From positions 1,664,001-1,728,000 of the forward strand of contig OZ245817.1 in the NCBI GenBank assembly GCA_965228475.1: a DNA stretch of 64,000 nucleotides. Direction: 5' to 3'. This document shows positions 2,089 to 32,558 of the stretch, piece after piece. The translations under genes were made by a program, and so were the position numbers. Position 1 is the stretch's first letter; every line of letters starts with the position of its first letter. The DNA comes from Myxococcota bacterium. Its GTDB lineage: Bacteria > Myxococcota_A > UBA9160 > JAFDDA01. Under the pieces are notes generated by a model. It saw only the letters and a list, made by a program, of their open reading frames with translations. It did no database searches and had not been told where the DNA came from.

Positions 2089-2966
2089 GCGGCGAAACTC
2101 CGCCGGACGAGAGCGCTCCGAAGCCGAGCGCCGCCGCCGAGTTCTGGGATCAGTTCGGCTCGCTGCTCGTGGCCGTGGCCCTCGCCCTCGGCGTGCGGGG
2201 CTTCATCGTCGAGCCCTTCCGCATCCCCTCGGAATCCATGCTGCCGACGCTCCTGGTCGGCGACCACCTCTTCGTGAACAAGTTCGCCTACGGCCCGCGC
2301 CTGCCGTTCGCGGAATCGCGCCTGCCGGGCCTGCGCGAGCCCGAGCGCGGCGACGTCGTCGTCTTCACCGTGGCGCGTGATCCACGGGACCCGGCGCGTA
2401 TCTGCCCGGTCGACCGCTGCCCGGGCCTGCCGACCGAGGAGTTCGTGAAGCGCATCGTGGGCATGCCCGGGGACACCGTCGCCGTCGCGGCCGACGGCAC
2501 GGTCCGCATCAACGGCGAACCCTTCGAGAACGACCTGCCGGGCACGTCCTTCGAGAACGGTGCGGGGACGCCCCTGGCCCTGCGCACCGAGCGCAACGGC
2601 CGCTGCGGCTACGAAACCCTCGACGACCGCCGCATGCAGGCCTCGCCGCGCGAGTTCCGCGTCGAAGCGGGGCGCTACTTCATGATGGGCGACAACCGCG
2701 ACCACTCGAACGACTCCCGCTTCTGGGGGACGGTGCGCGCCGAGGAGTTCAAGGGCCCGGCCCTGATCCTCTACTGGTCCTGGGCCTATAACGACGGTTG
2801 GCTCCCACTGTTGAACCCGCTCACCTGGTGGAAGTCGGAGAAGCGCTGGGACCGCATGGGCGACTCGCTCCGCTGCGTCGAGGAGCCCCCCGGAACGGCC
2901 TCCGCGGCCGGGGGCGGTGCGGCGGCTCGGCCCAGCGGGAGCCCGGCCCGAGCGCCCGCAGCCTGA
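2085..2966 (+). CDS. lepB: Signal peptidase I
   Basis: GTG overlaps lepA stop (GTGA); [17 protein letters not shown] and [14 protein letters not shown] boxes. Confidence 0.95.
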
Positions 2967-5998: not shown

Positions 5999-7204
5999 GT
6001 GACCTTTGACCTCTCGACCCCCAAACCCGCCGCTCTCGCGCTTGCCGACGGCACCGTCTACCGAGGCACGGCTTTCGGTGCCTCGGCCGTCGCGGCCGGC
6101 GAAGTCTGTTTCAACACGAGCCTCACCGGCTATCAGGAGATCCTCAGCGATCCGTCCTACGCCGGGCAGATCGTGACGATGACCTGCACCCAGATCGGGA
6201 ACGTCGGGACGACGCCCGAGGACGACGAGGCGGAAGCCCCGTTCCTGCGTGCCTTCATCGTGAAGGAGCACTTCGAGCCGCCTTCGAACTGGCGCTCGCG
6301 CGAGACGCTCGGTGCGTTCCTCACCCGCCACGGGATCCCCGGCCTGGCCGGCATCGACACCCGCGCACTCGTGCGTCGCATCCGCGACCACGGTTTCCAG
6401 AACGGCGTGGTCTCGACCGACCCGGCCGCCCAGGACGAGGCGGACCTCGTCGCCCGGGCGAAGGCGGCGCCGGCCCTCGACGCCCAGGACCTCGTCGCCA
6501 CCGTCACCACCGGAGAGAACTACGAGTGGAAGGACGGCCTCTGGCCCGGGATCGACGGCGGCCTCCCGCGCCCGGAGCGGCCCGGCCCCTCCCGCCGGCT
6601 GGTCGTCTACGACTTCGGCGTGAAGCGCAACATCCTCCGCCACCTGGTCGAGCAGGGCTTCGACGTCACCGTCGTGCCGGCGAAGACCTCCGCGGCGGAC
6701 GCCCTGGCCCTCGAGCCGGACGCCGTCTTCCTCTCGAACGGCCCGGGCGATCCGGCCGCCGTCGAAGGCGTGCTCGACAACGTCCGGGAGCTGGCCGAGA
6801 GCAAGCCGCTCTTCGGCATCTGCCTCGGGCACCAGATTCTCGGCCTCGCCCTCGGTGGCCGGACCACCAAGCTGAAGTTCGGCCACCACGGTGGCAATCA
6901 GCCCGGCCAGGATCTGGCGACCCGGAAGGTGGCGATCTGCGCCGAGAACCATGGCTACGCGGTCGAGGCGGAGTCCCTGCGCGAAGCCGGTCAGCCCATC
7001 GAGGTCACCCACATCAACCTGAACGACGACGTCGTCGAGGGGCTGGCCCACGCCGAGAAGCCGATCTTCAGCGTGCAGTACCACCCCGAGGCGTCCCCCG
7101 GGCCCCACGACGCGGCCTACTTCTTTTCACGCTTCCGGCGCATGGTGGACCTCCATGCCTCGGGAGAACCCGTCACCGGCGCCGCCGTGGCGAAGGGAGC
7201 CTGA
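5999..7204 (+). CDS. carA: Carbamoyl-phosphate synthase small subunit
   Basis: [40 protein letters not shown]. Confidence 0.98.
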
Positions 7205-25185: not shown

Positions 25186-25881
25186 ATGTTCCGCCCCCTC
25201 GACGTCGCCAGCTCGCTCTTCGCCACCCTCGCCCGCGGCGTCGCGGGCCTCTCCGTCGGGACGCTCGGCAAGCGTCCGGAGAAGCCCCTCGAGCTCTACG
25301 AGTTCGAGTCCTGCCCGTACTGCCGGAAGGCCCGCGAGGCGCTCTCCATCCTGGATCTCGACGCCATCGTCTACCCCTGCCCGAAGGGCGGTCCGCGCTT
25401 CCGCGAGCACGTGCGGAAGGTGGGCGGCAAGGCCCAGTTCCCCTACCTGGTCGATCCGAACACCGGTAAATCGCTCTACGAGTCCGACGAGATCGTCCGC
25501 TACCTGTTCGAGACCTACGGCGACGGCAGCGTCCCGTTCTCGCTCGCTGCCGGCCCGCTGACGGACGTGAGTTCGACGATCGCTTCCGGACTCCGCCTCG
25601 GGGCCGGCACGACCTACCGGAAGGCGAAGCCGCCCGAGCGCATGCTCGAACTCTGGAGCTTCGAGGCGTCGCCTTTCTGCCGCATCGCGCGGGAGGCCCT
25701 CTGCACGCTCGAGATTCCCTACAAGCTCCACAACGTGGCGAAGGGGAGCCCGGGCCGCGCGGCCTTCGAAGAGCGCTCGGGAAAGATGATGGTGCCCTTC
25801 CTCGTGGACCCGAACACCGGCGTCGAGATGTTCGAGTCCGCCGACATCGTGGCCTACCTCGAGGCCACCTACGGGGCTTAG
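25186..25881 (+). CDS. Tandem GST-N/glutaredoxin-domain protein
   Basis: Two repeats: ELYEFESCPYCRK...PYLVDPNTG and ELWSFEASPFCR...PFLVDPNTG. Confidence 0.88.
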   Translation: MFRPLDVASSLFATLARGVAGLSVGTLGKRPEKPLELYEFESCPYCRKAREALSILDLDAIVYPCPKGGPRFREHVRKVGGKAQFPYLVDPNTGKSLYESDEIVRYLFETYGDGSVPFSLAAGPLTDVSSTIASGLRLGAGTTYRKAKPPERMLELWSFEASPFCRIAREALCTLEIPYKLHNVAKGSPGRAAFEERSGKMMVPFLVDPNTGVEMFESADIVAYLEATYGA

Positions 25882-27356
25882 CGCCTTCTTCGGCGCTCCG
25901 CGGCCAGGACGAGCGCTCCGACGATCGCCAGGAGCGCCGCGGACGGCTCGGGGACCTGGGTGAGGAAGACACCCGACGAGGAGACGAACTCGACCCCCGG
26001 GGCGAGACCGATTTCCAGCGTCGCGGTGTTCGACGCATCGATCGAGGCCGTCGTGACTTCGGTGAACAACAGATGGGTGAGCGTCAGGACGGGATTGCTG
26101 CCCGGGATGACGACGGTACCGCTCTCCTCGAACCCGGTGACGTAGAAGGGTGGTGCGCAGAAGGGGTCGGAAGGATTGTCGAAGGTCGGGCAGGTCTCGA
26201 AGAGTTCGCCGCCGATGGTCCGGAGGTCGAGATCCGAGAAGCTCGTGTCCGCGGGGACGACTTCGAGATCGGTGAAGGCCTGGGCGCGCCAGCGCTCCGT
26301 GGGAAAGACCGTCAGCTGTTCGTCCTGGGCGGTGAAGGGATCCAGCCGGGTCGTGAACGTGATTTCGTAGTTCCCGTCCGGGTTCGTCGGCCCACTGAAT
26401 TCGAGGGTCTCGGTGTACAGGGCCCCGACGAAGAGGGGGAAGTTGACGGCTTCGGCGTTCAGCAGGTCCCGGGCGAGGGCCTCGACCCGTAGCGAGCCCG
26501 AGGCGAGACTGGCGGACGCTTCGATGTCGATCTCCCAATCCGACGTGGGCGAGCCGACGAGGGGTCCCCTCCCGTTGAAGATCTCGTGGAAATCCACCCC
26601 GGTGAACGGTACCGGTCCGCCCTCGTCCAGGAACACGAAGTTCGAGCCGACGAGGGTGTCACGGCTTCCATCTTCCGTCGGCATCATCGGGAAATCGACG
26701 GTGGTGCGAGCGGATACCCGCGTCGAGTAGTCGAGCGTGACCTGGGCGTTCGCGCTCGGTGCGACCCACAGCGCCGCACTGGCGAAGGCCAGCCCGAAGG
26801 CCGTCGGGATCCGGCGCCGGCGGGTCAGGAGGGCGACGGTCCCCACGAGGGCGAGTAGCACGCTCGAGGGCTCCGGGACGCGCTGGATCGTGAAGGTGCT
26901 CTGCGAGCCGTTGATGACGAAGAAGTCGTCGAGTACGTCGTAGCTCCCGCCTCCCATTCCGTTCGTGAGCGAGGTCGCGAAGAGGCGGATCCCGTCACCT
27001 TCGGCGTCGAACAGGTTGAACTGGAGCTGGCTCAGGTCGTTGGCCGACCAGGCGATCGTCTGGTTGATGCCGACGCGGAGGGTGTCGCTCGCGTCGAGGT
27101 CCACGCCGTTCACCGTGCCGACGAAGGCGATGAGCACCGAGAACGCTGGCGGGGAGTCGCAGCCGGGCGACGAGGCGCAGACGTCGGACCCGGGCGTACC
27201 CGGCAGATCGACGGTCAAGATCCCGCTGCCGCCGGTGGCCGTGCCCGAGCCGGCGAAGTCGAGTTCGTACTCGACGGGGATCGCCGACGCCGGCGCGGCG
27301 AGAGCGGCGAGCAGGGTGGTCAGGAGCCAGGTTCGAAGTCGACGAGCCAAGCGCAT
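25878..27356 (-). CDS. Secreted protein with two PEP-CTERM sorting signals and an internal signal peptide
   Basis: N-terminal signal peptide; internal VPEP-TM-RRRR then h-region and ANA-Q; terminal VPEP-TM-RRRRR. Confidence 0.85.
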   Translation of the reverse strand: MRLARRLRTWLLTTLLAALAAPASAIPVEYELDFAGSGTATGGSGILTVDLPGTPGSDVCASSPGCDSPPAFSVLIAFVGTVNGVDLDASDTLRVGINQTIAWSANDLSQLQFNLFDAEGDGIRLFATSLTNGMGGGSYDVLDDFFVINGSQSTFTIQRVPEPSSVLLALVGTVALLTRRRRIPTAFGLAFASAALWVAPSANAQVTLDYSTRVSARTTVDFPMMPTEDGSRDTLVGSNFVFLDEGGPVPFTGVDFHEIFNGRGPLVGSPTSDWEIDIEASASLASGSLRVEALARDLLNAEAVNFPLFVGALYTETLEFSGPTNPDGNYEITFTTRLDPFTAQDEQLTVFPTERWRAQAFTDLEVVPADTSFSDLDLRTIGGELFETCPTFDNPSDPFCAPPFYVTGFEESGTVVIPGSNPVLTLTHLLFTEVTTASIDASNTATLEIGLAPGVEFVSSSGVFLTQVPEPSAALLAIVGALVLAAERRRRR

Positions 27357-27428
27357 GCATCCTCCTGGGCTACACGCTTGGGTGGCAGGCGGAATGCAAT
27401 TGTGGCGGCTCGCCCCCTGGGGGCCGGC

Positions 27429-32042: not shown

Positions 32043-32156
32043 TTGGCGCAAGCGCCGTGTTCGCGAAAGCGGGCGGGGCGTGTGTCGTTGGTCTGTCGGG
32101 TCCGTTCCCCGTTGGGCGCGGTACTCGGAGCCACACAACATGGGGGAAACCCAAAC

Positions 32157-32558
32157 ATGGCCGCTCGTAAGCGGAAGGCCAAGAAGAAGGCCACAAAGAA
32201 GGCCACGCGACGTCGGAAGACGACGCGGAAGAAGGCCACCAAGCGCAAGACCAAGAAGAAGGCCGCCAAGAAGAAGGCGACCAAGAAGAAGGCCAAGCGG
32301 AAGGCCGCCAAGAAGAAGGCGACCAAGAAGAAGGCCAAGCGGAAGACCGCAAAGCGGAAGGCCGCGAAGCGCAAGACCAAGAAGAAGGCCAAGCGCAAGA
32401 CCGCCAAGCGCAAGACCAAGAAGAAGGCCAAGCGCAAGACGGCGAAGCGCAAGACCAAGAAGAAGGCCAAGCGCAAGACTGCCAAGCGCAAGACCAAGCG
32501 CAAGGCCAAGAAGAAGGCCACGAAGAAGGCTACGCGGCGCCGCCGCAAGAAGGCCTGA
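32157..32558 (+). CDS. Histone H1/protamine-like basic protein (133 aa)
   Basis: Only K, R, A and T after the Met; KRKTAKRKTKKKA repeats; followed by a terminator. Confidence 0.85.
   Translation: MAARKRKAKKKATKKATRRRKTTRKKATKRKTKKKAAKKKATKKKAKRKAAKKKATKKKAKRKTAKRKAAKRKTKKKAKRKTAKRKTKKKAKRKTAKRKTKKKAKRKTAKRKTKRKAKKKATKKATRRRRKKA

Follow-up and report, generated by a model that had tools for sequence, protein, structure and literature searches.

A putative Sec-exported PEP-CTERM polyprotein with an internal tag and signal peptide, and a class of multi-tag proteins that shares its layout

Envelope polyproteins of flavi-, pesti- and bunyaviruses are organised around junctions in which a stop-transfer anchor is followed by a short basic loop and by the next signal, which is cut by the host signalase. 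In bacteria, FbcH of Bradyrhizobium japonicum, connected with the 1991 work of Thöny-Meyer, is said to give rise from one gene to both cytochrome b and cytochrome c1, through an internal linker that resembles a signal peptide. PEP-CTERM proteins are sorted by a tag that, in the consulted part of Haft 2006 (PMC1569441), lies near the extreme C-terminus, with no transmembrane (TM) segment between signal and tag; the same part mentions very few long-tailed tags, which are considered possibly non-functional, and describes the cargo as extracellular and probably glycosylated. The working model in the available text of PMC12188702 proposes that PEP-CTERM proteins are either anchored or released. Related tags have been described at internal positions. 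According to the available part of PMC7157517, the central tag of HVO_0405 from Haloferax volcanii was found by experiment to be cleaved in an ArtA-dependent manner, and the sections of PMC11980579 at hand state that such tags work mid-protein and propose processing for MXAN_5598. No description of multi-tag PEP-CTERM polyproteins was found in the literature searched, which consisted of main texts and few subscription papers.

The window, that is, the whole 64,000-nucleotide stretch of DNA that was analysed, contains an open reading frame (ORF), P0001, that is likely to encode a Sec-exported polyprotein made of two PEP-CTERM cargo proteins and cut by signal peptidase I (SPase I) and exosortase (Table 1). 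A first-pass annotation had reported a single frame of 492 residues without naming its strand; the frame is as described and lies on the minus strand, from an ATG at 27356 to a TAA at 25880-25878, and the plus strand over the same stretch is interrupted by stops. The codon of the predicted mature Q205 begins at 26744, where that annotation had approximately placed it. Its statement that neither stop nor start codon separates the first TM helix (TM1) from the second h-region is correct downstream of the Arg cluster, where no stop and no ATG, GTG or TTG occurs, and has to be amended within TM1 itself, which holds two GTGs.

Table 1. Features of P0001 (positions in the window) and ORFs of the source genome that carry an additional internal tag
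Feature	Position	Strand	Remarks
Double PEP-CTERM ORF P0001	25878..27356	minus	492 aa; between GST-like gene and mgtE
Shine-Dalgarno AGGAGG ahead of the P0001 ATG	27361..27366	minus	anti-SD duplex -9.7 kcal/mol
N-terminal Sec signal peptide, residues 1-25	27282..27356	minus	by inspection; predicted cut A-S-A↓I26
Mature domain 1, residues 26-159	26880..27281	minus	acidic, Ser/Thr/Gly-rich, 2 Cys
Internal PEP-CTERM tag, residues 160-182 (VPEP, TM helix, RRRR)	26811..26879	minus	TIGR02595, PF07589
Internal signal peptide, residues 179-204	26745..26822	minus	strict match in rule-based scan; predicted cleavage
Two in-frame GTGs (V166, V171) in TM1	26844..26861	minus	possible secondary start; V166 with weak GGAG
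Mature domain 2, residues 205-467	25956..26744	minus	acidic, Ser/Thr-rich
Terminal PEP-CTERM tag, residues 468-492 (VPEP, TM, RRRRR)	25881..25955	minus	PF07589 second stretch
ORFs with additional internal tag, source genome	P0001; C1:4197019-4198845; C1:1532823-1533959

Both tags contain a PEP motif, a TM helix and a basic cluster, and both are recognised by PEP-CTERM profiles, as had been expected: PF07589 matches P0001 in two stretches and is above cut-off overall, TIGR02595 reaches 26.2 bits on the internal tag (cut-off 16), and a terminal-tag profile trained on the source genome gives 20.7 bits for the internal tag and 28.4 bits for the terminal one. The segment that follows the internal tag has all the elements of a Sec/SPase I signal, namely an n-region, an h-region, a helix breaker and an A-x-A motif: RRRR is shared with the tag as n-region, the h-region extends over about residues 186-199 (~14 aa), a Pro stands at -5, and the predicted cut is A-N-A↓Q205. 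Tat signals are marked by S/T-R-R-x-F-L-K, lipoprotein signals by a lipobox Cys and prepilin signals by G↓F-x-x-x-E. Inspection of residues 178-210 for these three types gave no F-L-K after RR, no Cys and no prepilin motif, and the RR pair at the junction is not conserved as a Tat motif (alignment A4). Neither a sigma-70 promoter nor a terminator was found for P0001, the upstream region holds no canonical sigma-54 -24/-12 match, and Rfam at the gathering threshold gave nothing in five loci.

The proposed mechanism takes its topology from the positive-inside rule. The N-terminal signal peptide would export domain 1 until TM1 stops transfer, RRRR-IPT would form a short cytoplasmic turn, and the second h-region would re-start export for domain 2, which TM2 would stop in turn; the chain would thus be arranged like any four-helix membrane protein that has two large loops in the periplasm. 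SPase I would cut after A25 and after A204, and exosortase would process each PEP tag. One translation event is predicted to yield two mature proteins of ~134 and ~263 aa, both acidic, rich in Ser/Thr and destined for the surface or matrix, and a helical hairpin of roughly 45 aa would remain in the inner membrane. The layout is proposed to have arisen when tandem PEP-CTERM genes were fused in frame and the stop, the spacer and the start codon of the second gene disappeared, a fusion that would be easy because the Arg tail of the tag is already a valid n-region. As a separate observation, a weak internal start within TM1 could skew the ratio of the two products.

The source genome consists of a single contig of 5.0 Mb with 70% GC. 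The genome-trained profile finds a terminal tag in 90 of its frames and an additional internal tag in three (Table 1). In all three, the internal tag leads into a basic cluster, after which come a hydrophobic stretch and a small-x-Ala motif, and their cargo is unrelated; a signal after every internal tag of the genome is more than chance would give. The third of these ORFs (C1:1532823-1533959) is a tandem duplication with units 31% identical and a longer linker. The exosortase gene that had been sought is present: two exosortases score above the TIGR02602 cut-off, neither at a subfamily cut-off (fragments scanned), and SPase I has three matches.

P0001 itself appears to be a lineage-specific insertion without an orthologue. 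In G001, a genome of the same genus, the GST-like gene and mgtE abut and P0001 is absent at the syntenic site, which points either to an insertion of ~1.55 kb here or to a loss in G001; this instance may therefore be young. A full-length search returned only P0001 itself among 8000 candidates, domain 1 had no homologue among 105 shorter candidates, 30 relatives yielded one weak match confined to the tag region, plasmids gave no match, and the matches listed for G001 and G002 include no stop-free junction that is accompanied by a second tag. Domain 2 has a sole homologue, P0158 (56% identity, with terminal tag), in which a lyase fragment stands where the signal would be and no signal is present at the lyase/domain-2 join. 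P0158 is probably chimeric; consisting of a truncated lyase and an attached homologue of domain 2, it is uninformative about the junction, and a metagenome scan with it returned lyase loci only.

The two cargo domains show no similarity to each other. Atlas feature matches for domain 1 (0.90-0.92) are unnamed hypothetical clusters only. Among the named NCBIfam PEP-CTERM subfamilies (NF038129, NF038120, XDP1, PepA and others) the best score is 50 bits against a cut-off of 65, and the subfamily matches of P0001 are mostly confined to its tags. Domain 2 is probably beta-rich; the single-sequence AlphaFold models are of low confidence (pLDDT 34.8 and 32.3). Both domains are acidic and Ser/Thr-rich with few basic residues, and they are taken to be putative EPS-associated surface proteins because this composition fits the cargo described in the consulted part of Haft 2006 (PMC1569441).

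The layout recurs, with up to ten units, in more than 100 other protein families, and is far more general than the first-pass annotation had guessed; that annotation had suggested looking for the same architecture elsewhere, and it is present in related genomes and in other phyla. A tag-only profile, built from 22 tags of the source genome with nothing downstream of the Arg cluster, was used to search 1.84 billion cluster representatives. Such a search brings up multi-tag proteins because HMMER sums domain scores, and as the profile covers the tag only, the signal part was not selected for. Rescanning of the best 150 matches revealed at least 117 multi-tag proteins, P0001 included, with 2-10 tags each (117/150 being a lower bound from the best 150 matches and not a rate); 1, 2, 3, 4, 5 and 9 internal tags occur in 66, 31, 12, 5, 2 and 1 of these 117 proteins, respectively. 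Several of the top multi-tag matches share one MAG series and are not independent.

Signals were called by a rule of our own with controls: a window of 10 residues that holds no charge and averages 1.8 or more in hydropathy, followed by a small-x-Ala/Gly site. A signal-like segment follows 196 of the 203 internal tags (177 by the strict form). Under the same rule, windows from mature domains are called in 38 of 579 cases (9 strict) and true N-termini in 81 of 100; frames read past 90 real stops are signal-like in 27 of 270 cases, several of which are the true signals of neighbouring genes. Three of the seven internal tags that fail the rule are terminal tags with long tails. The median distance from the basic cluster to the h-region is 12 aa, and 145 of the 196 linkers contain no Met (72 have no M, V or L at all). 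About a quarter of linkers retain Met and often resemble read-through intergenic DNA, and the longer, spacer-like ones are probably younger fusions.

Source labels exist for few members of the class, and those that do exist are Planctomycetales (P0002, P0003, P0005), Acidobacteriota (P0088) and bin BH09VER1 (P0024); no isolate accession was present among the 30 members looked up. The longest array, P0002, has ten tags in 2500 aa and is one table-11 frame in its contig. In its planctomycete genome, 58 of the 88 listed matches to a junction profile are stop-free over at least 45 of 51 positions, a count obtained with a profile partly trained on that genome and with 150 of 282 candidates scored. 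Across 301 genomes, the junction profile matches P0001 best, though P0001 is itself one of its training rows; in this phylum search 22 candidates were scored per genome, so that its matches are examples and not a rate.

Conservation of the junction can be followed in other families. G008, of the same order, has a clean double-tag ORF. In two families of the order, a further arrangement is found in which domain A, a tag and a signal precede an FG-GAP/TSP3 protein that has no terminal tag. The internal tag is followed by a second signal-like segment in 24 of the 30 loci fetched for this FG-GAP family; of the other six, three carry a usual terminal tag behind domain A, one ends at a contig edge and two match the FG-GAP part only. 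Tag, Arg cluster, h-region and A-x-A are retained in all 15 loci whose match spans both sides of the junction, these loci being kin and not independent. Members with ~33% identity both keep the junction, a retention that seems hard to explain by accident. In other families, selection maintains this class of junction, and selection on the junction of P0001 is likely, inferred from the class since no full-length orthologue was found.

The alternative that survives best, although it is unlikely, is a recent neutral or mildly harmful stop-loss fusion, whose product is processed by luck or misfolded and has no meaning here. It would agree with the lineage-specific character of P0001, with the tandem PEP-CTERM pairs of the source genome that share a frame and have just one stop and a short spacer between them, with the fast turnover of PEP-CTERM genes noted in the consulted part of Haft 2006 (PMC1569441), and with the description of HVO_0405 as a strain-specific fusion in the available text of PMC7157517. 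A simple stop loss, however, would leave a spacer, a Shine-Dalgarno sequence (SD) and a Met, whereas I-P-T is all that separates the RRRR of tag 1 from the second h-region, and GC3 is normal through the junction. The junction is also identical in three sequencing runs, and against an isolated accident stand the three independent cases in one genome and the conservation of the layout elsewhere.

Somewhat less probable still is that the second hydrophobic stretch stays uncleaved as a signal-anchor, so that the TM1-RRRR-h hairpin keeps domain 2 attached to the inner membrane (in which form exosortase may still free domain 1) or the whole chain is polytopic. A-x-A is common in Ala-rich, GC-rich proteins, and a small integral membrane PEP-CTERM family appears in the part of Haft 2006 (PMC1569441) consulted. 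The short h-region, with Pro at -5 and A-N-A, is nevertheless unlike a full TM helix, and the terminal tag of domain 2 is best understood if the N-terminus of this domain is free. Further evidence against an uncut helix comes from multi-tag members of the repeat type, in which first and internal units are homologous. The small-x-Ala motif of the internal signal is in register with that of the N-terminal signal in 23 of the 31 pairs of this kind that 20 proteins provided (129 pairs were tested), and a looser window places 27 of the 31 in register, against 3-12 at shifted registers. The h-regions of the same pairs diverge, so the motif keeps the register of true N-terminal sites while the h-region drifts, and it is also kept at 33% identity. 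By the rule and the register test together, the internal signals of multi-tag proteins behave statistically like Sec/SPase I signals.

It is much less probable that domain 2 is also, or mainly, translated from GTG166 or GTG171, which would abolish the 1:1 ratio and leave the polyprotein as a minor product. A GGAG lies 9 nt upstream of GTG166, and a start at V171 would give a plausible 34-aa signal. This GGAG is, however, a product of the Pro-Glu codons of the tag itself, with an SD energy of -5.8 kcal/mol versus -9.7 at the real start; the long chain would be produced in any case, as domain 1 lacks a stop; and start codons are not positionally conserved over 28 junctions, 7 of which have an ATG, GTG or TTG 0-8 residues after the first basic residue.

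The stretch is contained in three runs of two studies (X1, X2, X3), examined as Logan contigs and not raw reads, one of which may be the source of the window; no RNA run containing it was listed. The X1 contig (depth 32) and the X2 contig (depth 164, from another study) match the ORF from end to end without a difference or a gap, and the X3 contig, which spans 26062-27020, has a single substitution, Pro422His, at a distance from the junction. A stop or frameshift at this point, named in the first-pass annotation as the result that would speak against it, is absent. An artefact of assembly or gene calling, be it a missed stop, an indel or an alternative genetic code, is thus largely refuted for P0001 and has a negligible probability, even if most class members are single-contig metagenome proteins and chimeric records such as P0158 occur, as the three runs cross the junction without indel or stop, table 11 gives open frames both in the window and in L089, no Trp/Gln peak follows the Arg cluster, and many genomes conserve the layout.

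If the polyprotein reading of P0001 is extended to the class, the balance tips slightly in favour of a general, virus-like polyprotein strategy in PEP-CTERM-rich bacteria, among them Planctomycetota, Acidobacteriota, Verrucomicrobiota-labelled bins and the order of the source genome. A portable tag-Arg-signal hairpin of 45 residues would turn an operon into one translation unit, from which SPase I and exosortase would release up to ten proteins in fixed stoichiometry; the same joint reading, held with the same slight preference, makes the stop-free-junction form the majority of PEP-CTERM genes in at least one planctomycete genome, as judged from the 58 of 88 matches listed. If cutting takes place as predicted, 'CTERM' tags would be position-independent, polyproteins would be routine in bacteria and not curiosities, and many annotated giant PEP-CTERM proteins would be several proteins. 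Current annotation treats multi-tag PEP-CTERM ORFs as single giant proteins. The cleavage site, chemistry and timing of exosortase are difficult to observe at a terminal tag, since no more than ~25 residues are lost with it; processing at an internal tag would cause a large gel shift, as with HVO_0405 for archaeosortase, and could serve as an exosortase assay. For co-secretion of proteins in a fixed ratio, the 45-residue junction offers a candidate natural linker.

Compared with the canonical PEP-CTERM/exosortase substrates (EpsH, Xrt) in the consulted part of PMC1569441, P0001 shares the N-terminal signal, the VPEP-TM-Arg tag, an exosortase in the genome, unalignable, acidic, Ser/Thr-rich cargo and the occurrence of dozens of such substrates per genome, and differs in its second complete tag, which stands mid-chain and has another signal peptide and another cargo behind it. 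Tag 2 is terminal, whereas 310 residues follow tag 1, and two internal hydrophobic segments precede tag 2. P0001 is not filed as an ordinary PEP-CTERM member because the whole chain departs from both the terminal position and the lack of internal TM segments; it would rather work like two canonical substrates in series. Tag 1 would become terminal after an SPase I cut at A204. The layout is real and is a variant within a known sorting system, with wide reach.

HVO_0405 resembles P0001 in that a gene fusion places a normally terminal tag mid-chain, where a sortase-family enzyme still cleaves it; unlike P0001, it is a Tat substrate from an archaeon and a single, strain-specific case, and in the available text no second export signal or tag is described and its C-terminal part is not a second exported cargo (PMC7157517). 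MXAN_5598 of Myxococcus xanthus likewise has an internal tripartite tag, which is ascribed to fusion of genes for TraA-like and TraB-like exported proteins, but the tag is of the MYXO-CTERM type, for a myxosortase of the CPBP family; in the sections of PMC11980579 at hand it is rare and atypical, has no repeated arrays, its processing is a proposal and no internal signal peptide is discussed. Internal tags of other sorting systems are thus known as rare single fusions, and the PEP-CTERM polyprotein class is apparently undescribed in the literature searched, which included few subscription papers.

A single ORF with an anchor-loop-signal junction, as in polyproteins punctuated by signal peptidase, is present in P0001. 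FbcH reportedly shares with it the encoding of two membrane or exported proteins by one bacterial gene with an internal signal-peptide-like linker, but it concerns a single respiratory complex and has no sorting tag, whereas the PEP-CTERM class uses a reusable junction module with arbitrary cargo and up to ten units. The likeness to viral polyproteins is one of analogy without homology: theirs are handled at the eukaryotic ER, and in P0001 the first helix is also a sortase tag.

The source genome carries two further double-tag ORFs besides the polyprotein ORF. The one on L005 forms part of a tandem run of PEP-CTERM genes, the next of which shares an ATGA overlap with it. The one on L004, a tandem duplication, has a Pro/Arg linker of greater length. 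Elsewhere on the contig of the window, tandem PEP-CTERM genes lie in the same frame (G000:C1:966937-968439 and 3241470-3243338) and have between them a single stop and a short open spacer, so that their fusion is one substitution away. Such same-frame tandem genes are likely to be the raw material for fusions. What looks like a younger stop-loss fusion is found in another genome (G021, L088:86-1531), where the internal tag is followed by a Met-containing signal and then by a weak Peptidase_C39-like domain, which scores below the cut-off.

Features in the source genome and in the window
Feature	Location	Strand	Remark
Double-tag ORF	L005:5020-6657	-	same genome as the polyprotein ORF
Double-tag ORF	L004:3851-4960	+	same genome as the polyprotein ORF
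Protein with two GST-N/glutaredoxin-like domains	window 25186-25881	+	stop overlaps that of the polyprotein ORF
Signal peptidase I gene	window about 2160-2783	+	one of several in the genome; no link to the polyprotein ORF implied
171-aa frame	window 32043-32558	+	Lys/Ala/Arg repeats; resembles a histone-like DNA-binding protein

Two long linkers, at junction 8 of the 10-tag protein P0002 (L089:~6000-6060) and at junction 2 of P0015, have the motif WWTxHxKxEAAEGRD in common, which may be a non-coding element that became trapped in the fusion and is now translated; an Rfam scan of L089 gave nothing at the gathering threshold. P0158, in which a truncated fumarate-lyase-family protein is joined to a domain-2 homologue and a terminal tag with no signal at the join, is probably a chimeric contig or a broken fusion. 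The L124 frame was left out of the counts because its final stretch, at the contig end, looks like translated sequencing adapter.

A conserved family (L094-L096, L101-L116), from the same order as the source genome, is arranged as domain A, internal PEP-CTERM, signal and an FG-GAP/TSP3 protein that lacks a terminal tag. Domain A also occurs by itself or joined to different partners. The C-termini of L095 and L096, which have no Pfam match, look dockerin-like, and if they are, the freed protein could dock on its anchored partner.
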